DNA from: a virus
DNA: 64,000 nucleotides
Virus record (IMG/VR): IMGVR_UViG_3300035698_005189
Coordinates: 1 to 64,000 of that record
Direction: 5' to 3' (one strand)
Each line of letters begins with the position of its first letter. Position 1 is the stretch's first letter. Positions 9,224-34,374 of the stretch are shown in pieces. The translations under genes and the position numbers were made by a program. Under the pieces are notes generated by a model. The model worked only from the letters and a program-made list of their open reading frames with translations, was not told where the DNA came from and searched no databases.

Positions 9224-10699
9224 CTACGCCTCGGCACCCGTGGGCAGCTTGCCGACGTTGACGAAGATGCCGTTCTGCAGAGGCTTCATGATCTGGAGAG
9301 CGCCGTACAAGATTTGCATCCAGCGCACGGACGAATCCACGATCGCCAAGGGAATCTTGGTGAAGGGTGCGAGCTGCTTCCACTTCAGGACGTCGGCCTG
9401 CTGCGAGAGCATGTAGGCACGACCCGTGTCGGGCAGGAATCGGTTGACGTCGACCAGGGTCTGGACGGCTGCGGTGCGCGGGATGCGAAGGATCAGGCGG
9501 CAGGAGGCGGCGGTCCCGTTGATGTCGGACCGGTAGACCTCGTAGTAGGAGGTGTTCGGGCCGTTGTCGGTCACAGCAAGGCTGACCTGATCGGCGGCGG
9601 ACACCACGACGGCTGCGGAGAGCGCTGGGGCGCTCTTTCCGTAGCGGCTGCCGGCGACGACCTTGTAGATGTAGGTACCGGCGTCGGCAGCGGTCCAGAA
9701 GGTCGTGTTGGCTCCCGCGTAGGCCGGGCTGGTCGGCGCGGCGATGGTGGGGGTCAAGGGGCGGGCGGTCGCACGACCGATACCGGCTGCGACCGGGATG
9801 GTCGAGCGCGGGATCATGATCGAGGAGTTGAAGTCGATCTCACCGAAGGGGGTCACGATGGCATTGATGGCGACGCCAGCCTTGCCCTTGGCCCCGATGG
9901 TGGTGCGCTCCTTGGGGTACAGGATCTTGGAGAGGTCCTTGGCGATGCCGGTATCCATCCAGAGATCCGAGGGGGCACCGTAGTTCGGCTCGGCGATGAG
10001 CCGCTCCGTCATGTCGGTGATGTAGTCTTCGGACATAGGCTGGCCGCGCATGTCGATGACGTTGACCTCGTCTTCCCAGCCGGAGAGCTGGCCGTCGTCG
10101 AGGGCGGTGTTGCCCCAGGCGCTGGTCAGGAGCTTCTCGAGGCCATCGAACTGGATGGACACGAGCGACTCGTCGCCGGTGAACAGGGCGCGTTCGAGCT
10201 GGCGCAGGATGTGGAGGGTACCGTTGACCGTCTCACGAGCGACCGCGTTGCCGTGGGCGGCCTTGATTACCGACATGACATGCGTCACGCGGCGGGTCGT
10301 GCCCAGGAACTTGATCTTGGTGTAGTTGCGGCTGTAGGTCGAGTCGTCCTCTTCCGCCAGGTCGCCTTCACCCATGAAGACCGCGTCGGTGGAGCCGTAG
10401 GCCTCGAGGCGGTTGTACTCCTCGACGGTGTTGTAGGCTGCGTCCTTGGCCAACGCCTTCCAGAACTTGATATCCTTCGCTGCGAAAGTGGTCGTGAAAA
10501 GTGTCGCGTCCAAGGACTCGACGCGAAGTGGGAAACCCTCACCGGCGGCGGTACCTGGGTTGTTGATGTCGTCACCGGCGGTCAGAGCCTTGTTCAGCTC
10601 AGCGACGTCGCCGGGAGAGGTCACGCATGCGACGTCACCGGGCTCGGTGCTGGCACCGAGGTAGTCACGCCAGGAGACGGAATCGAGATTGGGAAGCAT
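9224..10699 (-). CDS. Major capsid protein (Herelleviridae/Twort-like)
   Basis: 'ELNKALTAG...PLRVESLDATL...AYNTVEEY...FDGLEKL', inserted beta domain 'GTYIYKVVAGSRYGKSAP' and C-terminal 'QLAPFTKIPLA...LYGAL'; follows protease and scaffold. Confidence 0.92.
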   Translation of the reverse strand: MLPNLDSVSWRDYLGASTEPGDVACVTSPGDVAELNKALTAGDDINNPGTAAGEGFPLRVESLDATLFTTTFAAKDIKFWKALAKDAAYNTVEEYNRLEAYGSTDAVFMGEGDLAEEDDSTYSRNYTKIKFLGTTRRVTHVMSVIKAAHGNAVARETVNGTLHILRQLERALFTGDESLVSIQFDGLEKLLTSAWGNTALDDGQLSGWEDEVNVIDMRGQPMSEDYITDMTERLIAEPNYGAPSDLWMDTGIAKDLSKILYPKERTTIGAKGKAGVAINAIVTPFGEIDFNSSIMIPRSTIPVAAGIGRATARPLTPTIAAPTSPAYAGANTTFWTAADAGTYIYKVVAGSRYGKSAPALSAAVVVSAADQVSLAVTDNGPNTSYYEVYRSDINGTAASCRLILRIPRTAAVQTLVDVNRFLPDTGRAYMLSQQADVLKWKQLAPFTKIPLAIVDSSVRWMQILYGALQIMKPLQNGIFVNVGKLPTGAEA

Positions 10700-10756: not shown

Positions 10757-11647
10757 CTAAAAGGCTTTGCCGAGGTGGACGCGGACAGCGGCCTCGACGT
10801 TGGGGGGCAGCTTGCCCGAGGTCTCGAAGAGGGCGGTCGCAGTCCCAAGGGTCTGGATCGCGCCCAGGTCACCGGCGGCGTCGGCCTTGATGACGAGGGT
10901 CTCGAGGGCACCCTTGACTTCGCTCTTGGTGAACTGCTGGTCTTCGGTTCCGCCGGTGGCCCCACGGGCGGGCTGTCGGACGGAGCGGGGGTCGGCGGTC
11001 TTGCCTCGGGGCGCGGCGGGGGTGGCTTCGACGACGCCGAGGCGCTGGGCCAGGGACTTGAGCAGCCGCCCCTGGATGACGGCGTTCTCGGCGACGGCGC
11101 GAGCCACGCGGCCCTGGGCCTTGACCAGCTCGAGGGTCCGGTGGTCGCCTTCGAGAACGCTCGTACCGAGGGCGTCGATTCGGCTGCCGATGCTGTCGGC
11201 CATCGCCTTGAGGACGTCGGAAGCGTCGAACATGTTGCCGACGTCCTCGTCATCGACGAGGGTCTCGGTGAGCGACTTGTTGAGGGCCTCACCACCGCCG
11301 GCGGGGGTACCCGTCCAGATGGCAGCCAGCTCGGTCTTCTCGGCCTTGGAGATGGTGCCGTCGACATGCTTGGCCGTCAGCTCTTCTTCGCGCTGGCCGG
11401 CGGGGTCCAGGCCCTGCTCAACGGCGGCGTAGTCGGCGAGGGCCTTCTGCAGGTCGTCACCACTGAGGCCCTTGCCGGTATCCTCGTCCTCTTCCTCGGC
11501 TTCGGGGAGGGCGTCGTAGTCTTCGGCAGTGACGGTGTCGTCGGCGCCTGCGGACTTGGCCATCTTGGTGTACTCGGAGAAGGGGAGCCCGGCGGGACGC
11601 TTGCCGCCCTTGACGATGCCGTAGGCCTTTTTGTAGGTCATGTTCAT
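10757..11647 (-). CDS. Putative capsid scaffold protein
   Basis: Acidic and helical, between protease and MCP, with many hydrophobic-x-K-[AS] sites (LQKA, LNKS, LLKS, FTKS, VIKA). Confidence 0.7.
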   Translation of the reverse strand: MNMTYKKAYGIVKGGKRPAGLPFSEYTKMAKSAGADDTVTAEDYDALPEAEEEDEDTGKGLSGDDLQKALADYAAVEQGLDPAGQREEELTAKHVDGTISKAEKTELAAIWTGTPAGGGEALNKSLTETLVDDEDVGNMFDASDVLKAMADSIGSRIDALGTSVLEGDHRTLELVKAQGRVARAVAENAVIQGRLLKSLAQRLGVVEATPAAPRGKTADPRSVRQPARGATGGTEDQQFTKSEVKGALETLVIKADAAGDLGAIQTLGTATALFETSGKLPPNVEAAVRVHLGKAF

Positions 11648-12438
11648 TAGTCGCTCCGTTCGGCGGTGTCGAGGATTGTTTCGATCGTACGGTATGAAAG
11701 GTCGGGACGCCAGCGCTTGAGCGCTACGCGGGATTCCGCCTTGGTAAGCCGTACCGGCTCGGTCGTGATCTCACTGATGGAGGCTGCGACCGCGTCGGCC
11801 CACTCTTCGGCGTAGGCGAGTTCGGTGATATCGTCCAGAACCCGGAGGGCCCCGCCGTCCCCAGCGGACCCACCGGCTCGAGAGTCGAACGACTCTGAGG
11901 ACGGGTAGCCGGCGGACAGTGCCTTGGCGAGCACCGAGAGGTGAGTCTCTCCGTTGACGGGAACATGGGTGATGGCGACGTTGCGGACACGGGCGGATGC
12001 AATCTTGCTCGTGTCGCTTGGGTCGCGGCGGCCGACCTTCCCCTCGATGGAGAAGCCGAGTCGCCTGGGAGTGCCCTTCAGTGCCTTGGCCTTATCCCAG
12101 AGGGCCCGTCCAGGTACGTCGTCGAGTAGGTAGCCTTCGGTCCACCAGCCCCGGTGCTCCGCTACGGTCCCGTCGGGGAGGCTGGCTCCCTTTTCCACGA
12201 GCCTGGCAGCGATCGGGTAGCCGAGGATGTCTACGGTCTTGTTGCCGTGGTTGTCGTTGTACCAGCCGATGTCGAGGAACTCGGAGAAGTCCAGGCCGTC
12301 CTGTACGACGGTCTCATCCTGTTTGTCGAGTCCCTCCGTAGAGACAATCCCACCGATACGCAGGGGATTCGCGTCGCCGGCCTTCTCGAAGGCGACAAGC
12401 GATGCGAATACCTGGAATCCGTTGGAGTCGGTTGGCAA
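11647..12438 (-). CDS. Prohead (capsid maturation) protease
   Basis: 'STEGLDKQDETV', 'NDNH', 'LGFSIEG', 'NVAITHVPVN' are herpes/HK97-type prohead protease motifs as in Twort-like phages. Confidence 0.9.
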   Translation of the reverse strand: MPTDSNGFQVFASLVAFEKAGDANPLRIGGIVSTEGLDKQDETVVQDGLDFSEFLDIGWYNDNHGNKTVDILGYPIAARLVEKGASLPDGTVAEHRGWWTEGYLLDDVPGRALWDKAKALKGTPRRLGFSIEGKVGRRDPSDTSKIASARVRNVAITHVPVNGETHLSVLAKALSAGYPSSESFDSRAGGSAGDGGALRVLDDITELAYAEEWADAVAASISEITTEPVRLTKAESRVALKRWRPDLSYRTIETILDTAERSD

Positions 12439-12491: not shown

Positions 12492-12520
12492 GTTATACGT
12501 CGCCTCATCCCAGGCGTCCA
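12492..12520 (-). promoter_or_regulatory. Sigma70-type promoter for the protease-scaffold-MCP operon
   Basis: Minus strand TGGACG-N17-TATAAC, directly upstream of the protease gene. Confidence 0.6.
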
Positions 12521-12738
12521 GCCCTTGCCACGAGGCCTGGGCTGGCGTCCTGAATATCAGCCATATCGTCCGCCATGGTTCCGCCCGTCACCACGACGAC
12601 GTCGGCCCCGCAGCGCTGGCAGGGGCCGTGTACTCGCCCTGTCTCCGGGTCGACCAGGACGATCCCGATACGGACCTTGAGGCCACCCTCAGACGAGGCA
12701 CCGCCGATGGAGCGGTGACACCCAGGACAGCGAATCAT
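12505..12738 (-). CDS. Small zinc-ribbon protein (77 aa)
   Basis: MIRCPGCHR...GPCQRCG; the ATG at 12738 overlaps the upstream stop. Confidence 0.65.
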   Translation of the reverse strand: MIRCPGCHRSIGGASSEGGLKVRIGIVLVDPETGRVHGPCQRCGADVVVVTGGTMADDMADIQDASPGLVARAGRLG

Positions 12739-13040
12739 TAGACGACCCGCAGATCCAGGTGGAGGGCAATGGACGCCACGCGGGGCGACATGGGAGCCCC
12801 GACCTCCGCAGCAGCCCGGGCGGCACCGACGAGGATGACCCGAAGCGCGGCTGCGCCGTTGTGCTTCATGATCTTCGTACAGGTGTCCTGGGCCTCGAGG
12901 ATCACGCACAGCCGAGCGATGTGGTCCGGATGAGGCTTCGACTCGGCCAGCCGGCGGAACGGCTCCGGGTCGACGAAGGCGTCGGGCCAGGTGGTCAGCA
13001 CCGAGTCGAGGTCGAATCCTACCGGGATGGTGGGGGCCAT
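12738..13040 (-). CDS. Hypothetical protein
   Basis: Tiles between neighbours, with RBS. Confidence 0.6.
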   Translation of the reverse strand: MAPTIPVGFDLDSVLTTWPDAFVDPEPFRRLAESKPHPDHIARLCVILEAQDTCTKIMKHNGAAALRVILVGAARAAAEVGAPMSPRVASIALHLDLRVV

Positions 13041-13042
13041 GC

Positions 13043-21259: not shown

Positions 21260-23371
21260 TTACCTCGTGCCGGTTCCGTTCTTGAAGAGTGCGGTCATCA
21301 TACCAGACAACCCACCGCTGGGCTGCTTTGCGTTGACGTCGTGGACCGTCCCAGGGGCGCTAATAGCCAGCTCTGGATCTACTTCCGTGTGAGCGGTCAT
21401 CGCTCTAAACTGAGCAATCCGCTCCTTGTCGCGCTGCTGCATGTATGCTCGTCTGGTCGACTCGACCTGCGACGGCGTGCTCGTGCCGGCTACTTCGGCG
21501 TCGAGCTGGGCTCCTACGGCATCGGCTGTGCCAGCCCGGGAGGCGGCCTGGTAGACGTAGACTCGCTCGTCGGTGCCGAATCGCTCCTTGAGGTCACGGT
21601 GCGATGGGCCCGAGGCCTCGAACTCAGGCCAGACCTCTTCGGAGGCCACCCACTGGTCGATCCGGTCCCGGAACGACGCATCGCGTGCGGTGGCGACTCG
21701 CTTGAAGCTCTCGGTTGCTGTGTCGAGCGCAGCGGCGGCTGCCCTGCGCTTGGTCGGGCGGGACTTGCCCTCGGCGAGCCCCAGCGCCTCTGCGACGTCA
21801 TCGAGGGAGCCTGGCTCGCCGTCATTGTCGAGACCGAACCTGACCCGGAGGGCTGTGCGGTTGTCGCCGTCGGCCATGGCCCCGAGGACGTCGTCTACTT
21901 CCTCCCTGACGTGGAGGGCGGTGCCGGCTGTGTAGGCCCCAGCCCCGCTCATCGGTAGGATGGCTTCCTGGTGGATGAGCCACTCTTCATTTCCGACCAC
22001 CCGGTCGCCACGGACGAGGTCGCCCAGGGTGTGGACGAGTTGCACCTTGCCGGGGTGGTCCTTGCCGAGTTCGTCCCCGTTGGGGGTCTTGATCTTCCAG
22101 GGACCGTCGGGGACCTCTTCGGAGCCCTGGTCGATGGTCTTACCGTCGTCGGTGACGTAGTTGCCGAGGTCCTTGCCCTGGTAGACGTCCCGCTTCTTCA
22201 GTCGCCATTCCGTAGCGGTCTTCTCCGGGGTCGGCTCGATGCCGAGGCCCTTCTTGCGGGCTCTGGTCCTGGCAGCGATGAGCCCGCCGATTACCTTCAT
22301 CTTCCTGTCGGGGATGGTGATGCCGGCCCCGAGTTCGGTCCGGGCCGCCTGCAGGGCGTAGGTCATGGCGAAGTCTTTGGCGTGCCCCAGGAATGGGGAG
22401 CCTCCTCCGTACGTCGACAGGCCCATCGCGAATCCGTAGTGGGCTCCGCCCAGAAGCTCTTCGTACGCGGCGGATGGGCCGCCTCCGGGAGCTACGCGTG
22501 CGATACCGTACCGCTGAGCGATACGCTTGGCTGCCCCGTGGATGAGCGGACGAAACTCAGCGAGCGTGGCAGCCTGTTGCTGCTTGGGGACCGCTACGCC
22601 GTCCCGCCACTTGCCGAGCGAGTTCTTCACCCGCAGGACAGCGAAGCCGCTGTGCTCCATGTCGTGCAGGATGGTGCCGGGCTCTGCGCGTGACTCAGCG
22701 AAGGGCTTGAGGCGACGAGCGGCGTCGGACACCGGGCCCTCTTCGGATGGCTTTTTGGGAGGCTCCACATTTACCGGCCTGCGCTGAGGCGGGGGCGGAG
22801 GTGGCTGGTGGCGCTTAGGAGGCGGGGGCGCGTCCTCTGGGGGCTTGGGTGGCTTCGCCTTCGGCTTCGGCGACTCCCGGCGGAGGGGGACGAGAGTAGT
22901 CTCCCTGGCCAGGTGGTGGCTGCCGGGGCTGGTGACCGAGGTCACCCAGACACCGCCTTCGGGCGCGGCGGCGTGGTCCGGGGTGACCCGGTAGAGGCCC
23001 TGCCTGCCTCCGACCTCAACGACGTCGCCGGCCTTCACGTTCTCGTAGGTCCTGGTGGGGTCGCGTTCCCAGGGGTGGGCGTCGTGCTCACGGTGTCCTG
23101 GGTACCAGTACTCGTAGCCCTTAGAGCCCTTGGCCTTCTTACGATATCCGCCCTTCTTGCCGCCGGGGATGGCTGCCCAGCCAGCGCCGGGTGGGGCATG
23201 AATCGCCTTGCTCAGGTCGGCCTGAGATTCCTCAGCTGCGATCTCGTCCCAGGCCTCACGGAGGCCGGCGGGGACGGGGTACCACTCGACATCGCGGGTT
23301 CCGTCGTCAGCGAAGTCACCGTCAACCATCCGAGGGTCCACCGGGACCGGGAGGGCTGCTACCTTGGCCAT
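21260..23371 (-). CDS. Divergent sigma70-family factor with long N- and C-terminal extensions
   Basis: Region 2 'EFRPLIHGAAKR...YEELLGGAHYGF...FLGHAKDF', region 3 'ITIPDR...GIEPTPEKTA', region 4 'VDDVLGAM...RTALRVRFGL...SLDDVAEALGL'. Confidence 0.8.
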   Translation of the reverse strand: MAKVAALPVPVDPRMVDGDFADDGTRDVEWYPVPAGLREAWDEIAAEESQADLSKAIHAPPGAGWAAIPGGKKGGYRKKAKGSKGYEYWYPGHREHDAHPWERDPTRTYENVKAGDVVEVGGRQGLYRVTPDHAAAPEGGVWVTSVTSPGSHHLARETTLVPLRRESPKPKAKPPKPPEDAPPPPKRHQPPPPPPQRRPVNVEPPKKPSEEGPVSDAARRLKPFAESRAEPGTILHDMEHSGFAVLRVKNSLGKWRDGVAVPKQQQAATLAEFRPLIHGAAKRIAQRYGIARVAPGGGPSAAYEELLGGAHYGFAMGLSTYGGGSPFLGHAKDFAMTYALQAARTELGAGITIPDRKMKVIGGLIAARTRARKKGLGIEPTPEKTATEWRLKKRDVYQGKDLGNYVTDDGKTIDQGSEEVPDGPWKIKTPNGDELGKDHPGKVQLVHTLGDLVRGDRVVGNEEWLIHQEAILPMSGAGAYTAGTALHVREEVDDVLGAMADGDNRTALRVRFGLDNDGEPGSLDDVAEALGLAEGKSRPTKRRAAAAALDTATESFKRVATARDASFRDRIDQWVASEEVWPEFEASGPSHRDLKERFGTDERVYVYQAASRAGTADAVGAQLDAEVAGTSTPSQVESTRRAYMQQRDKERIAQFRAMTAHTEVDPELAISAPGTVHDVNAKQPSGGLSGMMTALFKNGTGTR

Positions 23372-23372
23372 G

Positions 23373-24863
23373 CTACACGTCCTCGAAGAGAGTCGGATTC
23401 GCCCCGGCCCGCTCCACAGCCCACTTCCGGAATACTTCGGGGTGGATGTAGGAGGCCCGGGCGACAGCTGGGGTATTGTTGATCAGGGAGGCGACCTTCT
23501 TGGATGCGACGAACATGGCCTTAGCCAGGAGGCGCTTATCGCTCTTGGTGTCACCCGTGAGCGGCGGAGGGGTGTCGGTGGCGTTGATGGATCGCTCCGC
23601 CTCCTTCGTCGCCAGGATTGTCCGCAGATCCTTCAGGTACATCCCAGCGGGGAGGATGTCGCGCGACGCAGCGAGGGCCGCTCTGCCGAACAGCGGACGG
23701 TTGCGATGGCCGCCTCCCTTGGTGTAGTGGGACACGGCCTCAGCGATAGCCTTGTTCCTGATCGTGGCGGTGTTGGTCTTGCCCTGTTTCCCGACGAAGT
23801 CGAACTTGACCACGTTGCCCTCGACGGAGACGTGAGCCGACGTCAGGGTGGAGACGCCGTAGCGGCCTGCCAGCATCCCTGGCCCACCAGGCCGGAGGCC
23901 AGTCTTGGCGATAATCGCAGTGATAAGCGCGGCCTGATGGTGACGCGACCCAGGCTCGGCCCGGGACAGCTTCGACTGGATGCCTCGCACGATCTTGGGG
24001 TGGTCCTCGATAAACGACTGGACGCGGGCCCACTTGGCGGCGTCGGAGGCAGCGTGGAACTCGGGGGTATACCCGGACTGCGGCCGACCGGCCCTGTCTT
24101 TCCATCGGATGACAGCCGTCTTGTGCGGGTCGCCGTCGAGGCGCATGGTGATGGCTGGCAGGGGGATGGCGGCCTCGGGCAGCTTGCTTACGCCGAGGGC
24201 CTTCAGTCGCGCCAGGACGTTCGGATGTAGCTGGGAGCCTGGCGGGCGGTGCTTCTCGGGCTTCTTGGGTCGCCCTCGCGTAGCGGGAGCCCCAGCCTTC
24301 CACGGGATCGTATGCTTGGCGTCGGCCCACTTACCGCCTCGAGGCCCGATGAAGGGGCCGCCCGACTTGGCCAGGATGATGGCGGCACCGAGGGAGGCCT
24401 CACCTGAGGCAACCATGGCCCCGAAGTCATCGAGGGAGATCTCGGTGACCCCGGCTACGGCCTTGCCTCCCAGCGGGTGATGGGCGCAGAAGGCGTCGAG
24501 GGCTGCATCGCGGTCTGGGAACCACAGGAAGATCTTGTCTTCGTCATACCCGATAGCGCTGGGGTCGTAGTCTTTCTGGTGAACGACGTAGACCATTTCG
24601 TTGGTCGGGTCGGGTCCGACGTAAGCATCCACAGGCTGCCCATCGGCCCCGAGAGTGCCTTCGACCTCGCCGTACGGGAATCGCATCACGGCGGCCCACG
24701 GCTTGCCCTCCGGGTCCCGGCCCCGCCGGACCTGGCCGGCTGCGTTCTCGACTGCGACGGTGACGCAGGGCGAGATGGCTATGCGGCCGACGAAAGGGAA
24801 CGGGTCCCGGTTGGGGCTTGGGGGAGGGAGCATGGCCCGGCCACCCTTCGACGCGATGATCAT
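23373..24863 (-). CDS. InPase (inorganic pyrophosphatase-like) domain fused to DNA topoisomerase IB
   Basis: N-terminal 'ENAAGQVRRG...PYGEVEGTLGADGQPVDAYVG...VVHQ...YDEDK'. C-terminal Topo IB catalytic set: TGLRPG, FVGKQG, KDLRT, NNT, ASYIHP. The start at 24863 overlaps the MuF stop (ATGA). Confidence 0.88.
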   Translation of the reverse strand: MIIASKGGRAMLPPPSPNRDPFPFVGRIAISPCVTVAVENAAGQVRRGRDPEGKPWAAVMRFPYGEVEGTLGADGQPVDAYVGPDPTNEMVYVVHQKDYDPSAIGYDEDKIFLWFPDRDAALDAFCAHHPLGGKAVAGVTEISLDDFGAMVASGEASLGAAIILAKSGGPFIGPRGGKWADAKHTIPWKAGAPATRGRPKKPEKHRPPGSQLHPNVLARLKALGVSKLPEAAIPLPAITMRLDGDPHKTAVIRWKDRAGRPQSGYTPEFHAASDAAKWARVQSFIEDHPKIVRGIQSKLSRAEPGSRHHQAALITAIIAKTGLRPGGPGMLAGRYGVSTLTSAHVSVEGNVVKFDFVGKQGKTNTATIRNKAIAEAVSHYTKGGGHRNRPLFGRAALAASRDILPAGMYLKDLRTILATKEAERSINATDTPPPLTGDTKSDKRLLAKAMFVASKKVASLINNTPAVARASYIHPEVFRKWAVERAGANPTLFEDV

Positions 24864-25819
24864 TTCTTCCTCCTGACGAGCCTGCCGGCTACGCCGATAA
24901 CGGTCGGGACCGCCTGGCCAGACCTCCAATCCTCGGGAAACCGTAACATATCGGGAACGCGGAGCATCGAGCAGGCGCACCAGGGATGCATCGTGCCCAC
25001 CACGGCCTGCCAGTCGGCTTGCTTGCGACCGACGTTGGTTCCATTGTCGGTAAGATCGTCCAGGTAGAAGATCCGGGGGACACCACCCGAGAGGTAGAGT
25101 CGGATGCAGTGAGGGCAGGCGGTCGCACGCGGGAGCTTGTAGACGCGCTGGCGGCGGCCCTGCGGGGCGGACTCCTGCCACCGGGCGGCCTTGCCTTCCT
25201 GCACTGTGTTCTGGAACTCGGTCTGAGCTATTCGCTGCAGGTCACGGGTCCAGTCTTTAGTGAGGTGTCCCATGTCGCTCGTCATGCGGCTGACGGTGGA
25301 GCGGAACTGGCCGTCGAGGAAGTCGTCGGTCAGGCCTTCCTCCGCCCCGATCTCCTTGAGGCGGGCGGACGCATCCTCGTCGCCAAACCTGGCGGCCACG
25401 ACATCGCGCATGATGCCCCGGAGGCGGCGGTCCAGCGCGGCGTCGGCTTCGACGAGCATCTTGCCGGTGGCCTCTTCGACCCGGTTGCCCAGGCCGACGA
25501 CATACTGCGCGGCACGGGCGGACGCGATCTCAGCTGAGAGGCGCTCTTCCCGAGTCTGCGGGATCGGGCGGTCAGCGAAGTGCGCCATACCAAGATCGTA
25601 TCCGGGGCTGCCGCTGGCGGCGATGGCTGTCCCGGCGGCGAACACAGGAGCCACCAGGCCAGGCGACGCGTCCTCAACGAGTCCGAGCCCAACGGCTGCA
25701 CGCCAGTCGAGCTTGGTGGCGGAGGACTTGCCTCCGATGGCGGCGGCGGCAGCCGCGTGGTTCCGTCTGAGGACCTCGGCTACGCGTCGTCGCACCTCTG
25801 GGGTGACGAGGCGGGCCAC
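24860..25819 (-). CDS. MuF / SPP1 gp7-like head morphogenesis protein
   Basis: 'LQRIAQTE', 'ACPHC', 'HPWCAC' motifs; downstream of portal. Confidence 0.85.
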   Translation of the reverse strand: MARLVTPEVRRRVAEVLRRNHAAAAAAIGGKSSATKLDWRAAVGLGLVEDASPGLVAPVFAAGTAIAASGSPGYDLGMAHFADRPIPQTREERLSAEIASARAAQYVVGLGNRVEEATGKMLVEADAALDRRLRGIMRDVVAARFGDEDASARLKEIGAEEGLTDDFLDGQFRSTVSRMTSDMGHLTKDWTRDLQRIAQTEFQNTVQEGKAARWQESAPQGRRQRVYKLPRATACPHCIRLYLSGGVPRIFYLDDLTDNGTNVGRKQADWQAVVGTMHPWCACSMLRVPDMLRFPEDWRSGQAVPTVIGVAGRLVRRKK

Positions 25820-25823
25820 CGGG

Positions 25824-26117
25824 TCAGCCTGCGAAGATCTTGATGAGCGCGATGGTGCCTGGGATAGCCCCAGCCCCGACCCAGGCGAGCTTGCTGATCC
25901 AGGCTGCCCCTACGGCCTTATCGCGTAGGACTGTGAGGGTCTCGACCTTGGTCTTGAGTTCGGCAATCTCGCCCTGCATAGAGACGACGTTGTCGCTGAC
26001 ATGGCAGCCACGGCAGAGAATCTCGACCTCGCCGATGCGCTCTGCCATCCGGTCGATCTTACCCTCGAGCCTCTCCAGCATCGTGTATACCCTGTCAAGT
26101 TCGTCTGCCATGGTCAA
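25824..26117 (-). CDS. Coiled-coil protein with C-terminal hydrophobic anchor (XhlA/holin-like)
   Basis: Heptad N-terminus 'LERLEGKIDRMAERI' and hydrophobic C-terminal tail. Confidence 0.45.
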   Translation of the reverse strand: MTMADELDRVYTMLERLEGKIDRMAERIGEVEILCRGCHVSDNVVSMQGEIAELKTKVETLTVLRDKAVGAAWISKLAWVGAGAIPGTIALIKIFAG

Positions 26118-26407
26118 ACTCCGTCAGGGTCGTGGACCTCCGCCAAGATCTCAGCGATCTCAGCGAGGGCGAGGTCCATGGCACGACGGTAGATGTCAAC
26201 CGCCGCAGCGGTGGCTTCTCTGACTACCTCGTACCGTGGTTCGGCGTCGACGGGGACCGCTACGCGGGACCCACCAAGAGCCTTGACTGCCTCGTCTGTC
26301 CAGCCTGCGTCCGCACCATCGGCGACGGCGGCTGCACGGAGGGCGACCACGGCTCCCCCCGGGTCCCTGGCGAGAGACCCGGGAGCAGCTTCGACCGCCA
26401 GCCTCAC
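26114..26407 (-). CDS. Hypothetical protein
   Basis: Tiling with an ATGA overlap. Confidence 0.55.
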   Translation of the reverse strand: MRLAVEAAPGSLARDPGGAVVALRAAAVADGADAGWTDEAVKALGGSRVAVPVDAEPRYEVVREATAAAVDIYRRAMDLALAEIAEILAEVHDPDGV

Positions 26408-26410
26408 CGA

Positions 26411-26941
26411 CTACTCGGAGCTGGTGAAGGCGGAGGAGACGTTGGAGATGGCCGACCGGGTCGTGAAGTCGATCACGCCGTTGATGGCGGTATCGGCGGT
26501 CCGGTTCAGGGTCCAGTCGCCGAGGCAGGTCCAGTTGTCCGCATAGCCGAGGGAGGTTTCGACTTCGGCGTCGGTGGGTGCGACGGCGAGGCCGGCACCG
26601 GCGGGGGTACCCCAGACCACGCCGAGGACGGGGGTGTCGTTGTCGGCACCGGTGGCGAGGACGATGCGACCCACGATCTGGCCGGGGTTGGCCATGATGG
26701 CGACGGGCGACACGGTCTGCGCGTTGATGAACTCGAGGCTGTGCTTCAGCCCCTGCACCTTGGCGAAGAGGGCCTCGAGGTCGAGGATGGCGACACAGGC
26801 AACGGCACCGCTGCCTTGGGTCAGGGTGTCTTCGACAGGCACGCCGCCTTCGATGACACGATTGAACTCGAACGCGGCCTGCGCGTTGAGGAAGTCGAGG
26901 ACCTGCTGCGACTGCGCGGCGAGGAGTGCGGGGCTACCCAT
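26411..26941 (-). CDS. Hypothetical (possibly structural) protein
   Basis: Strongly biased codons like MCP; good RBS. Confidence 0.6.
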   Translation of the reverse strand: MGSPALLAAQSQQVLDFLNAQAAFEFNRVIEGGVPVEDTLTQGSGAVACVAILDLEALFAKVQGLKHSLEFINAQTVSPVAIMANPGQIVGRIVLATGADNDTPVLGVVWGTPAGAGLAVAPTDAEVETSLGYADNWTCLGDWTLNRTADTAINGVIDFTTRSAISNVSSAFTSSE

Positions 26942-26971
26942 GATGGATCTCCAGGGGGTGTTGGGTCAAGG

Positions 26972-28627
26972 TCATACGTTGATCTCGTATCGAGTCACCC
27001 GCGCCGGGCGGGCTGGCCACTCTGACCTTATGGCCTTCTCAGCGGTGTCGTCCAGCTCGTCGCCCCAGGCACCGTCCCCGTCCTCGGGACTGAAGTCGAA
27101 GTCGGCATCGGATGCCTCGTCCTCCTGAGCCGGTTCGCCAGGCGCTCCGGGCTCACCAGGACCACCCGACCCGCCGCCCATGTCGGGCTGCTCTGCGGCT
27201 TCCTGGGCTTGCTTGTTCTGGAGCCAGGTCGGGTCGAGGATGATCTCACCGAGCCCGTCAGGCATCGGCTCCATCCCGGCGGAGTCGCGGGCTTCGTCGA
27301 CCGTAACGAAGACCTTGGTCTGCTTGGCGAGAAGTTCGGCTTCGGCGTCGGGGCCCTTCTCGGACAGGCCCACGGGGACCGCCTCGAAGTCGTCGTCGAG
27401 CTGCCGGACGAAGTAGGTGTTGAGGCACTCGAAGAGCCACTCGACCAGCGGTCGCAGACCGAGGTCGCGCGACGCCTTGAGCTTCTCTTCGATGGACGAC
27501 TGACCCATGGCCCCAGACTGCCCGGTGTTCCCGTAGCTGAAGTTGACCTCTTCGGGTGCGATCTGGAACCGGGCGCAGACGACCTTGATCAGGAAGTCCA
27601 GCCAGGAGCTGTACTCCATATCACGATTCGACATCTGCATGTTAATCCACTGCAGCTCTTCGGCGTTCGTGATCGGGGTGCGCCAGGCGTTGGATACGCC
27701 GCTGACCATCGCGTGCCACTGGCGGCGGAAGCCGTCCAGCTGGCGCGACGGGATCGGGCCCTTGAAGTTGAGGATTCCCTTGGTCGCTGAGCCCTGTGAG
27801 AAGAAGCGACGATTGTACTCCATACCCCACAGGAACCCCGTGATCTCACGGACCAGGGTCTCGATCTCGGAGATGCCGTAGCCGTAGGCATGTAGAGACG
27901 TCCTGGGGTTGCGGGTGCAGAACGCCATCTCGTCTGGGGCGAAGTCGGCGAAGACCGACCCGTTGATGACCTGGACGGCGTAGGGGTCGCCTGACGACCG
28001 TGTGCCTGGGTCCAGCAGGCGGATGGTGTCGGCTGCGAGTAGGGACAGGTAGGCCGGCTGGCCCTTCCGGTTGCGTACGATCTCGAAGGGGGCCTGGTCC
28101 CAGATCAGGGAGTTCTCGACCATCATGCGGCCGAAGGTCCGGAGGGGTACGCCGTCCTGCGGGCGGTTGTCTGGGACCACGCCGGTCGTCAGGAGCAGCG
28201 CCTCCAGCTCACCGGCTCGCTTGTCGGAGGCCCGGGTGACCTTGGCCTTCTTGTCGCGGAGGCGGACCCGGAAGCCAGCCCCATGGCGATCCTCGGGCTG
28301 GACAAGGAACGTCGCCACCTGATTCGCCCGGACCTTGATGACGTCGGCGACGACAGGTACTCCACGACCGATCATCTCCATAGCCCCGTAGGACAGCGAC
28401 GTCGGCCGCTCCCGGTAGCCCATGGCAGCGACGAGGTCGAACGGGTCCCAGTGGAGCCCCTTGGGAGCCTCTTCGGTATCCTTGACGTTGCGGGCGGGGC
28501 TCGTGATGGTCCCGGGGTCGGCTGGCTGCGCCGACCGTGGGGCCTTGCTGATGGAGTCCTCCACGGCGACCGTAGCCCGTCGGGCCACGGCTCCGCCGAG
28601 AGATGTGAGGTCGTCGCGCAGGCCCAT
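26972..28627 (-). CDS. Portal protein (Twort-like)
   Basis: 'RNPRT...YGYGISEIE', 'NRRFFSQGSATKGIL', 'DMEYSSWLDFLIKVVCARFQIAPEEVNF', 'SRDLGLRPL', 'TVDEAR'. Confidence 0.92.
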   Translation of the reverse strand: MGLRDDLTSLGGAVARRATVAVEDSISKAPRSAQPADPGTITSPARNVKDTEEAPKGLHWDPFDLVAAMGYRERPTSLSYGAMEMIGRGVPVVADVIKVRANQVATFLVQPEDRHGAGFRVRLRDKKAKVTRASDKRAGELEALLLTTGVVPDNRPQDGVPLRTFGRMMVENSLIWDQAPFEIVRNRKGQPAYLSLLAADTIRLLDPGTRSSGDPYAVQVINGSVFADFAPDEMAFCTRNPRTSLHAYGYGISEIETLVREITGFLWGMEYNRRFFSQGSATKGILNFKGPIPSRQLDGFRRQWHAMVSGVSNAWRTPITNAEELQWINMQMSNRDMEYSSWLDFLIKVVCARFQIAPEEVNFSYGNTGQSGAMGQSSIEEKLKASRDLGLRPLVEWLFECLNTYFVRQLDDDFEAVPVGLSEKGPDAEAELLAKQTKVFVTVDEARDSAGMEPMPDGLGEIILDPTWLQNKQAQEAAEQPDMGGGSGGPGEPGAPGEPAQEDEASDADFDFSPEDGDGAWGDELDDTAEKAIRSEWPARPARVTRYEINV

Positions 28628-28629
28628 GG

Positions 28630-28992
28630 CTACCCCCGGGCGAGGATGGAGAGGGGGTCGACGAGTCGGCCACTGGGGGAGCGGACGGGCGCTCCCCGGT
28701 TGTCGATGGCGCCCACGGTGGCAGCCTTGACGACCGGCGCAGCCTCGAGGCCTGGGCCCCGGGTCCGGTCGCCCATGGTCAGGGCGGCCTGAGCGGTGTA
28801 GTCCGGAGCGACGTCGTAGCTGCAGACACCGACGAGGAGCGGTTCGGCCTTGACGACCTGCTCCACAGCCGCAGGGCTATCGGCCACGACAGGGGCCACC
28901 GGGGCGGCTTTGACGAGGTCGGGGTCGGCGGGGGATACGCGGGCGGGGTGGCCAGCGGTGAGGATGGCGAGTGCGAGGCGGTCGGTGGTCAT
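28630..28992 (-). CDS. Small protein with three V-K-A motifs
   Basis: DLVKAAP, QVVKAEP, PVVKAAT. Confidence 0.55.
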   Translation of the reverse strand: MTTDRLALAILTAGHPARVSPADPDLVKAAPVAPVVADSPAAVEQVVKAEPLLVGVCSYDVAPDYTAQAALTMGDRTRGPGLEAAPVVKAATVGAIDNRGAPVRSPSGRLVDPLSILARG

Positions 28993-31550
28993 TCTCTGCT
29001 CCTGAGTGTGGCGACCAGTTCGGTGGCCTGGCTGGTATTCATGCGGACCTCGTCATCGCTGACAAAGGAACCGGCGGGGACGGGGCCGAGGTCGCCGACG
29101 TCGCCCTTGATGACGACTGTCTCGTCATCGTGGTCTACCGTCATGCCGCCGAGCGACTTGACGAGGTTGCCGATGACGGCGGCCTTGGCGGCTGCCTTCT
29201 TGGCTTCGCCGCCCAGCCCGAAGTACCGGCGGACGGTCGTCTTGTGCTTCTTGGTGCCGTGGACAGCCGACAGGAGGCTGCCGGCGGTACTATGGACGGT
29301 GCCCTTCCAGCGGAAGGAGCCACCAGCCAAGACTTCGGCGTGACGATGGTCTTCGCCGTGTTCCTGGGCGTGACGGTCCCTGACCCGCAGGACCATGCCG
29401 GGCTGCAGGTCGTCTCGGTGGCCGTGCTCGTTGGTGGCGTGGGCCGCTCCGCGCTTCGGGCCCTTGGGGAGGGAGGGGGTCTTCTTCTTGGGTGGAGTCG
29501 GCTTCTTGGGTGCGACCTTCTTCTTGGTCGGCGACGTGTGAGCGCCGGCCTTGGTGCTGGCTCCATCCGCCATGTCGGAGCTGTACTCAGCCTCGATCCT
29601 TTTGCTACTGGACCCGCCGATAGCGTCCATATTGTCACGAGCGGCGGCTTCGTGGGCGCGGGCTGCGGCGGTATGCTTGGTTGCTCCCTTGGTGTCACCG
29701 GCGGCTCTGAGCTTCTTAGCCGATGCATGATGTGTGCCGGCTGTGCTCTGGTGGGCGTCTGCTTTCACGGTGTGAATCTTGCGGGACTTACTGCCTGGTG
29801 TGGGCTTCGCTGGGGGCTTGTGGCCGATAAGGCCGACGACGTCTGGGACCTTAGCTGCGGTCGCCTCACGACTGGACACAGACGCGGCCTCGGACGCGGC
29901 CTCGGCCCTCTTCGAGACGCGGAAGATCCCCTTTCCGCCAGCGTGGGCGGCTGCTGCCTCGTCGTGGGCCATGGCTGCCGTGTAGTGCGCCAGTGCGGCT
30001 GTCCTACCGGCGATGCCGGCGGCACTACTTCCGCTGCCGGCCTCGTCCTCGTGGCTGGCGGCCTTCTCCCTGTGCTCTGCAGCCTGGCGGCCGTGGTGGT
30101 GGGCGGCCTCGTTCACGGGCTTCTGGGTGCCTGTCTTGGGCTCTGTGTACTGGTACTCCCAGCCAGCCCCCTTGCGGCGTCGCTGTCCACCGTGCTTACC
30201 CCCAGGGATCGCTTGCCAGCCGCCTTCAGCCTTCACGATAAACCCGGAGTCGGCGGTCTGGGTACGGGGGAGAAGGAGGCGACCGGAGGTCGTGAGCATG
30301 GGGTTCGACATGGACTTTCGCACCTTGCTGGCGACCTTGTCGGACGCCGTTACGATCTTGCCGTGGTTGCGGTGGGCGAAGGCTGAGCCCATCGCAGCAC
30401 CGGCGGGACCCAGGAGGACGGCTCCCACAGTCGCGCCGAGGGCGAGGACTGCGAGGGTACGCAGGCTGTGGCCAAGAACGGACAGGCCTGCGCGGGTCGG
30501 ATGGGAGCGGCTGTGTCGTGCCTGGTGGCGGAGGGCAGCGATTTGCTTGAGCAGTTTCGCGTGCTGGGCCTTGTGCTTCCCGCCCGGGTCCAGGGTCTCC
30601 TCGATGGTCTTCGTAGTCCGCTCGACGACATGGGCGGCCCCAGCCAGCGACGCCGCCTCACGGGGGTCGGTCGGTGGCTGGTGGTCTTCGTCGGTCAGGT
30701 CGGCTGGCTCTACGACGCCGGCCCAGGCTGCGATGTACGCCGCCTCGTCGACAGGGGAGGTGTCAGCCCCGTCTGCGGGCTCAGGACCGGCTGGGGTATT
30801 GCCAGGGGCCTCCGACGGTGCTCCCGGGGCGGGGGCTGCGCCCAGCTTCTTGCCGGACGCCTTCTCCATTCGCGTCACGAGGGCGTCGAGGTGCTCCATC
30901 GTGTGGCCGGGCTTGAGCTTCCCACGGATGCGGATGCCGGCGGACTTCGCCTGCTTCCGGATCTCGCGGAACCGGGCGGCGACCTTAGGGTCGGCGTCGC
31001 CCTTGGCTGGGGGAGTGACCTTGTCGCCCTGGATCGGCTCACCGGGCTTCCTGCCTGGCAGGTTAGACGACCCGCCCCGCCAGTACTCGTACCCGTTGCC
31101 CTTCTTGCGGCGAAAGCTGCCCTTCTTGCTCCGGGGTGCCGGCTCCCAGCCAGCACCCGGGGGCCCAGCCTTCCTGAGTCGCACGCCATGGTCGATGACC
31201 TGGGGCGCGAGTGAGTCGGGAATGCCGGCCTGGCGGAGGACCTTGGGGACGTCGAATAGCTCGCAGGCGTCGTTCGCTACAGCATCGATGACGTTGGCCA
31301 GCTGCCGGGCGGTGGAGACGTCCAGACCGAAGGCGGACGCGGCCTCTTCGGCTGACTCGAAGTCGCGCTTGATGGGGCGCTGCTTCGGTCGCTCGGTCAC
31401 TGGGAACTTGGCAGAGAGCCACGCAGCCCGGTCAGGGTCGTTGACGTCATGCCAGACCCTATCGTCAAGTTCGGGATGCTTGCCTGTGGCGCGGCGTCGG
31501 GAGTCAGGGATCACAGTATGGACCTCCGACCTAATGTTACGCCGTCCCAC
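28989..31550 (-). CDS. 853-aa multi-module protein (two cargo motifs, hydrophobic segment, His/Ala helical repeats, RAMA/DUF2924-like C-terminal domain)
   Basis: Between terminase and portal; C-terminal 'PGMVLRV...AEVLAGGSFRWKGTVHSTAGSLLSAVHG...YFGL'. Confidence 0.7.
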   Translation of the reverse strand: MGRRNIRSEVHTVIPDSRRRATGKHPELDDRVWHDVNDPDRAAWLSAKFPVTERPKQRPIKRDFESAEEAASAFGLDVSTARQLANVIDAVANDACELFDVPKVLRQAGIPDSLAPQVIDHGVRLRKAGPPGAGWEPAPRSKKGSFRRKKGNGYEYWRGGSSNLPGRKPGEPIQGDKVTPPAKGDADPKVAARFREIRKQAKSAGIRIRGKLKPGHTMEHLDALVTRMEKASGKKLGAAPAPGAPSEAPGNTPAGPEPADGADTSPVDEAAYIAAWAGVVEPADLTDEDHQPPTDPREAASLAGAAHVVERTTKTIEETLDPGGKHKAQHAKLLKQIAALRHQARHSRSHPTRAGLSVLGHSLRTLAVLALGATVGAVLLGPAGAAMGSAFAHRNHGKIVTASDKVASKVRKSMSNPMLTTSGRLLLPRTQTADSGFIVKAEGGWQAIPGGKHGGQRRRKGAGWEYQYTEPKTGTQKPVNEAAHHHGRQAAEHREKAASHEDEAGSGSSAAGIAGRTAALAHYTAAMAHDEAAAAHAGGKGIFRVSKRAEAASEAASVSSREATAAKVPDVVGLIGHKPPAKPTPGSKSRKIHTVKADAHQSTAGTHHASAKKLRAAGDTKGATKHTAAARAHEAAARDNMDAIGGSSSKRIEAEYSSDMADGASTKAGAHTSPTKKKVAPKKPTPPKKKTPSLPKGPKRGAAHATNEHGHRDDLQPGMVLRVRDRHAQEHGEDHRHAEVLAGGSFRWKGTVHSTAGSLLSAVHGTKKHKTTVRRYFGLGGEAKKAAAKAAVIGNLVKSLGGMTVDHDDETVVIKGDVGDLGPVPAGSFVSDDEVRMNTSQATELVATLRSRE

Positions 31551-33180
31551 CTACTTCGTCCACGGCCCCGAGGCCAAACCAGTCGGTCCCTGATCCGTCG
31601 TTAGGGTAGTCGTCGGCTGGCGCGACTGCTGGGACGTCCCCGACCATGTCCCCGGAGCCGGTCTCGTCGACAAGGTCGAAGGCGTCTCCGATGGCGGCTG
31701 CACGGTCGGCCATCCAGAGGGCCATCACAGTGTCATCGTGGGCCCCGACGCCCTGCAGCTTGCCCTGCGCCCACGAGAACGATGTCATCTCACCGATCCA
31801 GAGGCTGACCAGCTCGCGTGTCTCTTCGGCCCAAGCGATCCTGAACTTCCCATTCTCGAGAAGCATCCGTAGGGCGGGCACGCCCTGGTCGAGGGCATTC
31901 TTGTTCGACGAATAGGTCTTCTGCATACCACGCCGCATAGTCGAGGCCTGCTTGGCGCCTCCGCGACCCGTCGTGTAGAAGGCCTTGATGGGGACGTCCG
32001 ACTCCTGTACGACCATGTCAGTAATCACGCGTTGGTACTGATTCGCTTCGCAGAAGACGAGCCCACAGCCGTACTTACGCGACAGGCTGACTATGATGTC
32101 GATCTGGGTCTGGTAGCCGATCCCCTGGCGGCGGACAATATCGACGATGTATCGGTCCCCATTCTCAGCCACTGCGATGACGAAGCACACGAACCAGTCA
32201 GCCTTGGCTGATGCGGACAGGGCGAGGTCGACCCCCATGTAGGTCGCGCAGTTGTTAGCCCGCCAGTACGAGCCCGGGAGCCCGAGCGGATAAGGGAGCT
32301 TGACTCCGGGCGTGTCGAAGAGGGTGGACGGGAATAGCGATGAGTCGTCCGAGATGGGCGTGCAGAGCAACTCACGCGACCAGCGGAGCGACGAGCCCAG
32401 GATGCGCTTCTTGACAGCCAGGGCGGGGAGGTCGTAACGCGCCGGCCAGAGGGGGTCGCCCTCGGGGCCGATAGCTGGGTGCTTGCCGACACTGAACTCA
32501 CCCGTCTCTTCCAGGTGCGCGTACAGGTCCTGAGCGTGGAACGGGGTGCCGACCACGATGAGCTGACCGCCGGGGACGATCATGGGCTCGATGGCGGACA
32601 GGAAGTAGTCGATGGCCTTCTTTCGGACGGTGTAGCTCCACAGGTGGTCATCGTTCAGGACGTCGTCGGCCACCGCCCAGAATGGGTGGCCACCACGAAC
32701 GCGAGTACCGAAGCCACGGGCGCGGATCTCGGAACCGTTGGCGAACCGGAGGGCGCGGGCTGTGTCCTTTTTCAGGGGCAGGAGGTGAGCCAGCTTCGGG
32801 TTGCCGTACTCACCGAATTCGCCATCGCCACAGACCTCAGCGCGGATCTTGGCGAGGTGCTCCTCGGCCTGGGTGGATGTGGCCGAGAAGATGTACCCCA
32901 GCGACCTGGGGGCCTTGATGTCGGCCATCCAGATCGGGTATGCGAAGTCGAAGAAGTAGCTCTTGCCGTGGTCACGGGCGGCCAGCTCGAGGACGCGCCG
33001 GGACGAGCCCAGCGTGTCTCCCCAGTCGATGTGGTGGGGCCCAAGGATGAATCGCCCACCGTAGGCGGGCGGCCCTCTGAGGGTCTCGGAGGCGTAGAAG
33101 GGCAGGTAGGAGCGACGCATCGACTCGTAGTCGGTGCGCCACTTAGGGTCGTCGAGCCTTTTTGCCCTTGCTGCATCCAC
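31537..33180 (-). CDS. terL: Terminase large subunit
   Basis: Walker A 'AARDHGKS', Walker B 'VADDV', 'VGTP', nuclease 'MGVDLA' and 'HDDTVMALW'. Confidence 0.95.
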   Translation of the reverse strand: MDAARAKRLDDPKWRTDYESMRRSYLPFYASETLRGPPAYGGRFILGPHHIDWGDTLGSSRRVLELAARDHGKSYFFDFAYPIWMADIKAPRSLGYIFSATSTQAEEHLAKIRAEVCGDGEFGEYGNPKLAHLLPLKKDTARALRFANGSEIRARGFGTRVRGGHPFWAVADDVLNDDHLWSYTVRKKAIDYFLSAIEPMIVPGGQLIVVGTPFHAQDLYAHLEETGEFSVGKHPAIGPEGDPLWPARYDLPALAVKKRILGSSLRWSRELLCTPISDDSSLFPSTLFDTPGVKLPYPLGLPGSYWRANNCATYMGVDLALSASAKADWFVCFVIAVAENGDRYIVDIVRRQGIGYQTQIDIIVSLSRKYGCGLVFCEANQYQRVITDMVVQESDVPIKAFYTTGRGGAKQASTMRRGMQKTYSSNKNALDQGVPALRMLLENGKFRIAWAEETRELVSLWIGEMTSFSWAQGKLQGVGAHDDTVMALWMADRAAAIGDAFDLVDETGSGDMVGDVPAVAPADDYPNDGSGTDWFGLGAVDEVGGTA

Positions 33181-33186
33181 CAGCGA

Positions 33187-34374
33187 CTATCCCCCGGGCG
33201 GGGGTGGTGGCGGCTTCCTCTTGGTCGCCTTCTTGCGCTTCTTCGGCTTCTTGGCGGCGGGGGCGGCCTCTTCGACGCCACCTTCGTCGAGGCGGAGGGG
33301 CATGGTCAGTACCTCGACCTGGACTTCGCCGCCGCCCCAGACGATGACGCCCTGAAGGGGTCCGTTGACGGACAGGGCGAGGATGTCGCCGCCGGCCTTG
33401 GCGATGACGCCTGCTGCCAGCGACATGGCTGCCGGGGAGATCCCGAAGAGCACTCCCTCAGCCAGGGTAGCGACGTCGGCCTCCCCGTCGGGCTTGCCCT
33501 CGACCTCCACGTCCCCGACGAACTCACCGATGCCGGTGGCCGTGGCTCCACTCGAGCCCTGGCAAGCGATGCGTCGGCCGCTGACGGTGATACGGAAGGC
33601 TACCAGGGGATTGTCGGCCACAACGGAGGCACGGTCGAACATACCCGCTAGGACCTTCCCAGCGACGTCCACCCTGACCCGGGCTGCGTCGTTGCGCTGC
33701 GCGACCAGGACATTCTCGACGGCGGAGTCGGGCCACTCGAGGCCGATGCCGGTACACCAGCGGATCTGACCGGAGGACGCCTCGCGTACGAAGACCCGGT
33801 GGTTGTCCAGGGAGAACTCGCAGTCTCCGCGCAGGCCAGCGAGCGTGTCGGCCGGCATGGTGAAGGGCTCGGGCAAGACTCCGCCCTTCCATGCGACCGC
33901 AACCGTGGTGGCCGAGGCCGCCGCAGTCCATTCGTGGTGGAAGCGGATGCCGCTCAGGGCGTAGGCTGCGGCGTCGCGTGGGGCTGCCCCGGCTGCGATG
34001 GCAGCGATAGCCGACATCTCAGCGCCGGTGACCTTGACCCAGCCCTCGGTTGGGATGGGCGGCGGAGCCGCCACGGCCTCTTCTTCGAGGACCTGTAGGG
34101 TGTATCGTCCTCCGGAGCCTTCGACGACCAGCCGGTCACCCTTGCGGGACAGGGTGGGCTCGTTCAGGGCCTTTACCATCTTGGCCAGGGTCGCACAGTC
34201 CACGGCGGCGCTGACGGTTGCTGCCTCGCACGGGATGCGGACGCCTGACTCCACGTTCTGGGCGACGATGTGACCGTCTCCCAATACCGCGCAGTTCAGG
34301 CCGTTGTCGGGTCGGCTGGCGGCGTACTTGCCGGCCACACCGAGAGCAGAGTTGAGGTCCATGCAGATCTCCAT
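33187..34374 (-). CDS. DNA polymerase III beta-clamp-like sliding clamp
   Basis: ~390 aa with 'ALSGIRF', 'WPD' and C-terminal 'LTMPLRL', echoing DnaN; K/P-rich tail. Confidence 0.6.
   Translation of the reverse strand: MEICMDLNSALGVAGKYAASRPDNGLNCAVLGDGHIVAQNVESGVRIPCEAATVSAAVDCATLAKMVKALNEPTLSRKGDRLVVEGSGGRYTLQVLEEEAVAAPPPIPTEGWVKVTGAEMSAIAAIAAGAAPRDAAAYALSGIRFHHEWTAAASATTVAVAWKGGVLPEPFTMPADTLAGLRGDCEFSLDNHRVFVREASSGQIRWCTGIGLEWPDSAVENVLVAQRNDAARVRVDVAGKVLAGMFDRASVVADNPLVAFRITVSGRRIACQGSSGATATGIGEFVGDVEVEGKPDGEADVATLAEGVLFGISPAAMSLAAGVIAKAGGDILALSVNGPLQGVIVWGGGEVQVEVLTMPLRLDEGGVEEAAPAAKKPKKRKKATKRKPPPPPPGG

Follow-up and report, generated by a model that had tools for sequence, protein, structure and literature searches.

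Phage proteins that are packed into the virion and injected are hard to predict from sequence; T4, P1 and the giant phages use idiosyncratic signals devoid of a common consensus. The capsid targeting sequence (CTS) carried by the internal proteins IPI-III and Alt of T4 is transferable in T4, according to the outline of this work (Mullaney & Black 1996) given in PMC9024508 and PMC10052503. In phage P1, the ≤30 N-terminal residues of DarB, a giant methylase/helicase polyvalent protein, suffice to bring a reporter into the capsid; removal of this signal was not reported and it is presumably retained, and the Dar proteins have no common consensus (PMC9024508). In SPN3US, phiKZ and 201phi2-1, A-X-E is the consensus at which the prohead protease processes a large number of internal or ejected head proteins, and propeptides are cut at multiple sites (PMC10052503). 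Polyvalent proteins of phages and of conjugative elements were described by Iyer et al. 2017 (PMC5512222), who proposed that they are processed by their own zincin-like metallopeptidase domains. The present analysis concerns the first 64 kb (positions 1 to 64,000, hereafter the window) of the IMG/VR virus record IMGVR_UViG_3300035698_005189, a complete genome of 98,094 bp with direct terminal repeats. Its head-morphogenesis module encodes proteins bearing a short motif, here called the type-1 tag, located just downstream of predicted prohead-protease sites.

The type-1 tag is a basic and aromatic motif of ~30 amino acids (consensus PPGxGW..IPxGKxGGxRRR..G.YEYWYP) whose 30 residues have a net charge of about +6 to +8. 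Exactly three copies, in two head-module proteins (Table 1), were found when the window was scanned in six frames and when a profile was run over the full 98,094-bp genome (E 5e-15 to 6e-14). These scans confirmed the three minus-strand copies reported by an initial inspection of the DNA made without database searches (the sequence-only reading). The type-1 motif is real and under selection. The three copies share 12-19 identical residues of about 30 and 49-67% of their nucleotides, and different codons are used at about 26-42% of the residues that are identical between copies. Since codons diverged while residues remained identical, the protein sequence is what is conserved. A recent intragenomic duplication of the DNA of the tag was also considered and is ruled out by this codon divergence.

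All three copies of the window begin 2-4 residues after an [LIV]xK↓A site (the arrow marks the predicted cut). The sequence-only reading had claimed that the motif always follows a K-A/S site, which holds in the window (3/3) but not elsewhere. Among 258 type-1 copies from 158 representative proteins, for each of which the 16 residues upstream were scanned, 141 (55%) are preceded by an [LIVMF]xK[AGS] site, as against 8.8% for positions drawn at random from these proteins (p 3e-78), and two copies are C-terminal. The distance from the lysine to the tag shows a sharp peak at 2-5 residues; position P3 is mostly Leu and position P1′ is Ala, then Gly or Ser. Counted from the sites, 21% of all those found in tagged proteins are followed by a tag, compared to 3.6% expected. 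In addition, 31 of the 258 copies (12%) are at most 20 residues away from the annotated N-terminus; they were counted apart from the group with a site, with which they may overlap.

The [LIV]xK↓A tetrapeptide is very likely a prohead-protease site, as judged from sequence only. Independently of the tags, the pattern expected for substrates of a Herelleviridae-like prohead protease was found in three proteins: at the propeptide boundary of the major capsid protein (MCP), many times over in the scaffold, and in the C-terminal region of the protease. An L-x-K-A-L stretch occurs at one aligned position of the MCPs of the window and of four relatives, where it ends an otherwise variable N-terminal segment, and DALNKALEAG from gp6.1 of Bacillus phage SPO1 (L030, FJ230960 40130-46664) aligns with AELNKALTAG from the MCP of the window. 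The scaffold proteins have 9-11 sites per ~300 residues (3.7 per 100 residues in the window), and the SPO1 scaffold gp3.3 has 11 [LIV]xKS sites. At the end of the catalytic domain, four of the five proteases carry LAK[AS], the fifth one carrying IAKA. No [LIVMF]xK[AGS] site was found in the five tail-side open reading frames (ORFs) that were checked. The Lys-specific pattern of these sequences seems to be shared with Herelleviridae, which lack tags; our literature search found no paper mapping the cleavage site of an SPO1/Twort-type MCP. The association of tags with sites and the evidence that these are prohead-protease sites give good in silico support to the proposal of the sequence-only reading that the motif becomes the new N-terminus after cleavage, ahead of a functional module.

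The sequence-only reading had also pointed to two looser analogues of the motif, one preceding the topoisomerase IB domain of P0002 and one at the N-terminus of P0004. Both are real and are found again in relatives, where they follow sites of this kind, but they constitute separate classes, designated here as type 2 and type 3. The data set includes 22 distinct copies of the type-2 pattern (GP[FY]IGP[RK]GGKWAD..HTIPW), 19 of them directly after a site, and 30 distinct copies of the type-3 pattern (HKYxKR...G..[YW]xYxY), 29 of them after a site. Comparison of the three tag types by hhalign revealed no significant relationship (best probability of 32%, for the last strand only, G-[WY]-x-Y-x-Y). 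Therefore, they are treated as analogues and not as homologues. All three types can be found in one protein (e.g. P0073).

Table 1. Tags, predicted protease sites (arrow, predicted cut) and genes of the head-morphogenesis module in the window; the genes are listed from right to left
Feature	Position in the window	Strand	Details
Type-1 tag copy 1, PPGAGWAAIPGGKKGGYRKKAKGSKGYEYWYP, in P0001 (motif region residues 53-91)	23099..23194	-	profile E 8e-15
Predicted prohead-protease site LSK↓A, 4 residues upstream of copy 1	23204..23215	-	
Type-1 tag copy 2, PPGAGWEPAPRSKKGSFRRKKGNGYEYWRG, in P0003 (residues 125-158)	31074..31163	-	profile E 6e-14
Predicted protease site LRK↓A upstream of copy 2	31167..31178	-	
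Type-1 tag copy 3, AEGGWQAIPGGKHGGQRRRKGAGWEYQYT, in P0003 (residues 438-468)	30144..30230	-	profile E 5e-15
Predicted protease site IVK↓A abutting copy 3	30228..30239	-	
LAK↓S site and type-2 tag, GGPFIGPRGGKWADAKHTIPW, in P0002, between its InPase and topoisomerase IB domains	24300..24374	-	
IAK↓A site and type-3 tag, SHKYWKRVRRMVNGKLAWVYYYP, N-terminus of P0004	20822..20932	-	
Sliding-clamp-like gene	33187-34374		
Large terminase	31537..33180	-	
P0003, 853 aa, between terminase and portal	28989..31550	-	two tags
Portal protein	26972..28627	-	PF04860
MuF-like minor head protein	24860..25819	-	no Pfam match; homologous to MuF-position genes of relatives
InPase-topoisomerase IB protein P0002	23373..24863	-	
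P0001, cargo protein, 703 aa	21260..23371	-	sigma-like
Giant protein P0004, 2635 aa	13043..20950	-	HExxH (zincin) and SNF2 helicase; sites at residues 7 and 2616
Head maturation protease	11647..12438	-	phrog_1028; LAK↓A at residue 170
Acidic scaffold-like protein, 296 aa	10757..11647	-	11 [LIVMF]xK[AGS] sites
MCP	9224..10699	-	phrog_752; LNK↓A site at 10586-10597

The search with a profile of the three copies against 5.8 billion proteins gave 16 matches, down to E 6e-17. A scan of IMG/VR identified 25 loci, in which a local hidden Markov model (HMM) found 86 copies. With a profile of 50 copies, 459 proteins were retrieved at E<=1e-3 (71 at E<=1e-10) among 1.84 billion cluster representatives, with up to six type-1 copies per protein. 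In the 50 diverged copies, the near-invariant residues are G(W/F/Y), P, GG, R and two Tyr. The genomic context was checked for the IMG/VR loci. In 23 of the 25 IMG/VR loci, the tag ORFs are located beside homologues of the terminase, portal, MuF, protease, scaffold or MCP of the window. Furthermore, in the genomes of five relatives (81-109 kb, CheckV completeness of 61-100%), all the copies (24/24) are found in one block of at most 23 kb. The sequence-only reading had proposed to build an HMM and look for an enrichment in head operons and for a diversity of fused domains; both were found, the copies being grouped in the terminase-to-capsid block and attached to many unrelated enzyme modules. 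Overall, the tag is widespread but restricted to a lineage of ~100-kb uncultured tailed phages.

This lineage is known from metagenomes alone, since the MCP of the window shows 32-35% identity with the capsid proteins of SPO1-like Herelleviridae and its terminase shows at best 28% identity with that of any cultured phage. A near-identity search of the region against 50,697 GenBank phages found no match, nor did a tblastn search of the three tag types against the same phages, which has a low power for queries of 40-60 amino acids under the low-complexity filter. Among 185,579 prokaryote genomes, the type-1 pattern was not found and the type-3 pattern was found once, in JALORE010000001.1 (L029), a 98,765-bp scaffold of a Planctomycetota metagenome-assembled genome. 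This scaffold is the same phage as the IMG/VR locus L012, whose terminase and type-1 and type-3 tags it shares, and its binning in Planctomycetota is either a weak hint about the host or a mis-binning.

Using the alignment of 50 copies, AlphaFold2 predicted that the type-1 tag would form a three-stranded antiparallel β-sheet (strands 6-8, 17-20 and 27-30) with a mean predicted local distance difference test score (pLDDT) of 81. For the type-3 tag, it predicted a two-stranded β-hairpin (pLDDT of 86-90 in the hairpin). No family covers the tags in Pfam (E<=5), NCBIfam (E<=0.1) or PHROGs (E<=1e-3). The search of PDB sequences with the 50-copy profile gave only chance-level matches, the ESM Atlas gave no usable match for the tag, and Foldseek and VIA-align gave no informative neighbour, the 32-residue model being too small for these searches. 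The model recalls the WW domain (PF00397) in shape only: in each, about 30-35 residues would start with P-x-G-W and fold into a three-stranded antiparallel sheet whose last strand is rich in aromatic residues and precedes a Pro. However, the centre of the tag is poly-basic and the PF00397 model does not match it even at E<=5.

The modules that carry tags are diverse. Pfam searches on tag-bearing proteins from relatives identified 20 families in 36 proteins. The domains of tag-bearing proteins include SNF2, InPase, N6_Mtase/Eco57I, ddrB-ParB, LPD1, ART-PolyVal, Zeta_toxin, topoisomerase I, SAM lyase, PAPS reductase and DUF6582. The typical fused protein has one tag ahead of each module, and the distance from tag to tag has a median of 360 residues. 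Examples are P0012 (tag-TopoIB-tag-unknown-tag-sigma-like), P0027 (tag-ART, tag-unknown, tag-methylase-SNF2) and P0034 (InPase-tag-unknown-tag-SAM lyase-tag). The same modules are encoded by separate genes in the window and by fusions elsewhere. These proteins display the hallmarks of polyvalent proteins: several disparate domains including signature domains, as in the window (InPase with Topoisom_I, and HExxH with SNF2) and in tagged relatives, and a location of their genes among packaging and head genes.

Some features of these cargo proteins and of their genes can be added. The stop codon of the MuF-like gene overlaps the start codon of the InPase-topoisomerase IB gene (ATGA, window 24860-24863), and in the relatives L008-L011 and L001, MuF, tag and InPase constitute a single polypeptide. 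In the relative L007, a 2536-aa protein (L007:2483-10093) terminates in a type-1 tag, and the protease gene starts about 60 nt further on. Readthrough from this tag into the protease gene was considered and rejected: the stop codon is followed by a spacer of ~60 nt that is closed in all three forward frames. Also in relatives, a Q-[LM]-G-[LM]-F-G or QLxLF peptide, which resembles the β-clamp-binding motif of bacteria, is often located between the K↓A site and the tag (L004:9263-18460, residues ~490 and ~1265; L012:7814-14149; L020:2372-9181; P0016 and P0027). It was not seen in the cargo proteins of the window. The phage has its own clamp-like gene (33187-34374). As for P0001, its likeness to RpoD region 4 is weak (E 3.5e-4, far below the cut-off).

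The comparison with the described systems shows likenesses to each of them. As outlined in the two articles that relay it, the T4 CTS is likewise a short N-terminal signal of injected proteins packed in the head and is linked to a prohead-protease site, which is L/I-x-E in T4 and [LIVM]-x-K in the present lineage. However, according to the same outline, the T4 signal precedes the cut and is lost on maturation; the tag follows the predicted cut and would be retained. In this outline, the CTS also consists of about 10-20 unstructured residues, with one signal per protein, whereas the tag is a conserved 30-aa β mini-domain found before each module; the two share no sequence similarity. Unlike what defines the T4 type, a signal located N-terminal to the site and removed on maturation, the site is upstream of the tag in 3/3 copies of the window and in 141/258 other copies. 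Therefore, the tag falls outside the T4 CTS class even if it serves the same end, and the analogy with T4 drawn by the sequence-only reading is functional at best.

The signal of P1 DarB differs from the tag in that it is neither repeated nor linked to a protease site, and a comparison by eye of residues 1-50 of DarB (NC_005856) with the tags found no shared motif. The repertoire of the polyvalent proteins (InPase, ART-PolyVal, LPD1, ddrB-ParB, the methylase-helicase dyad and MuF fusions), their head-gene context and their predicted injection with DNA are the same as here (PMC5512222). However, tags between modules were not described for them and no LPD family in Pfam matches the tag; moreover, the cut sites found here match the substrates of the prohead protease itself. 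The giant phages resemble this lineage by the processing of head or ejection proteins by a prohead protease at a short consensus (PMC10052503). They differ from it by the loss of long N-terminal propeptides, by the lack of any reported shared motif at the new N-termini, and by a Glu at position P1 instead of a Lys.

Considered together, these data make it highly probable that the architecture is that of a protease site followed by a retained N-terminal tag on cargo modules. More tentatively, we infer that the tag could be a handle that recruits each module into the head and keeps it there. The combination of such a cassette and such a handle is the explanation that we favour, with a confidence that stops just short of an even one. 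The cassette would be made of [LIVM]-x-K↓[A/G/S], 2-5 residues, the tag and an enzyme module; the tag would cap the N-terminus of each cargo (polyvalent-protein) module packaged in the virion, and at least three interchangeable classes of tags, types 1, 2 and 3, all present in the window, would fill the same position. During head maturation, the prohead protease of the phage would cut separate precursors as well as multi-module polyproteins, each resulting piece starting with a tag. Before maturation, the tag would bind the acidic scaffold/protease core; after the exit of the scaffold, it would bind the packaged DNA, and the freed enzymes would stay in the capsid until they exit with the genome at infection. 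A handle function is favoured because every separately encoded cargo protein of the window bears a tag, because the structural substrates of the protease are untagged, and because P1 DarB provides a precedent for a retained signal (PMC9024508).

Several points weigh against this explanation. A single copy suffices for pure targeting, yet the polyproteins keep a well-conserved copy for each module, and the MuF-tag-InPase fusions already have a known route into the head. Many copies lack a recognisable site within 16 residues (it is present in 141/258), two of the 258 are C-terminal, and the fold and sequence searches gave no informative neighbour. That fusions keep one tag per module speaks for a role played once cleavage has occurred (retention, DNA tethering or ejection), or for a simple inheritance of whole cassettes.

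Other explanations have to be considered. Small three-stranded basic/aromatic sheets, such as those of AP2/ERF and of the N-domain of the Tn916 integrase, can bind DNA. The tag might be a sequence-nonspecific nucleic-acid-binding module acting in the infected cell, where it would tether the released enzymes (topoisomerase, helicase, methylase, sigma-like factor and nuclease) to the entering phage DNA or to host DNA or RNA, with no role in packaging. Its strong positive charge, its invariant Arg and its conserved Tyr and Trp on predicted β-strands would fit such a function, as would the many tagged modules that act on DNA and the occurrence of one copy per module, which suits a function exerted after cleavage. 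There is also a likeness to the RNA-binding CDR-H3 of Fab BL3-6, which is at chance level (E 1.2) but chemically compatible. However, tags also precede modules without nucleic-acid substrate (InPase, SAM lyase, Zeta-toxin kinase and ART), no similarity to any known DNA-binding domain was detected, and neither the coupling with protease sites nor the confinement to the head module would be explained. We regard this alternative as rather unlikely. The coupling would be accounted for if the tag were an exosite for recognition by the prohead protease, or a folding 'stopper' that presents the K↓A bond and sets the end of processing, without any later role. The sharp peak of the lysine-to-tag spacing at 2-5 residues agrees with it, as do the short leaders of 7-9 residues that still precede the site and the tag at some N-termini (P0004, P0024 and P0027), and it predicts exactly one tag per cleavage site. 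However, the sites of the MCP, scaffold and protease are devoid of tags, hence the protease needs no tag. Moreover, several of the 31 copies located within 20 residues of an annotated N-terminus lack a leader or a site, and one pocket would have to fit three unrelated classes of tags. We regard this role as quite improbable.

The passage of large cargo through a narrow channel is established for the virion RNA polymerase of N4 and for P1 DarB. Here, cargo of 700-2600 residues would have to traverse such a channel, and every cargo module has its tag at the N-terminus after the predicted cleavage; the tag might be an ejection leader that engages the portal/tail channel or the leading end of the DNA and threads the cargo out. 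However, a folded β-sheet would be an odd leader for threading and we know of no ejection signal of a comparable kind. Such a leader appears very improbable to us, and the data do not separate it from retention. The location of the tags in Pro/Gly/Lys-rich linkers between modules could also be that of an element that passively links domains or aids solubility; it would have no specific partner and would have been passed on with shuffled cassettes. The near-invariant G, P, GG, R and two Tyr in 50 diverged copies, the confidently predicted fold and the conservation at the protein level despite codon turnover all argue against such an element, to which we give hardly any credence.

Other features of the window deserve mention. 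The head-morphogenesis module, which holds the region under study, belongs to a window of 65-68% G+C in which the minus strand carries nearly all genes. The head maturation protease (P0007) has no match in Pfam or PDB. A hydrophobic stretch of ~35 residues (window 30360-30490, residues ~355-395) separates the two tags of P0003 and is conserved in its homologues P0009 and P0019; P0003 might be an ejection protein that inserts into membranes. An ORF encoding 120 amino acids (window 28630-28992), for which no family match was found, lies between the genes of P0003 and the portal; its three [LV]VKA sites, 2.5 per 100 residues, amount to a scaffold-like density. A small protein that is conserved is encoded at 26411-26941. 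The 211-aa ORF listed for the interval that separates the giant protein from the protease (window 12505-13140) is rich in Arg and Pro and is probably miscalled; towards its C-terminus, two CxxC pairs (CPGC...CQRC) suggest a small zinc-ribbon gene.

The most far-reaching proposal would be a universal, portable 'cut-and-tag' cassette, made of a site and of one of three ~25-30-aa β-hairpin tags, that is necessary and sufficient for the capsid loading and host delivery of any module. Such generality is doubtful. If it were true, it would explain the free shuffling of modules in polyvalent proteins and would offer a general sequence marker for injected phage proteins in metagenomes. If confirmed, the favoured explanation would provide a sequence rule for finding injected effectors, such as anti-restriction and takeover enzymes, in metagenomic phages, and, for laboratory systems, a compact handle that could be transferred to foreign proteins to load them into phage capsids. 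It would also mean that polyvalent proteins can owe their processing to the prohead protease and not to their own peptidase domains, and it would explain how modules move between separate genes and fusions without loss of delivery.

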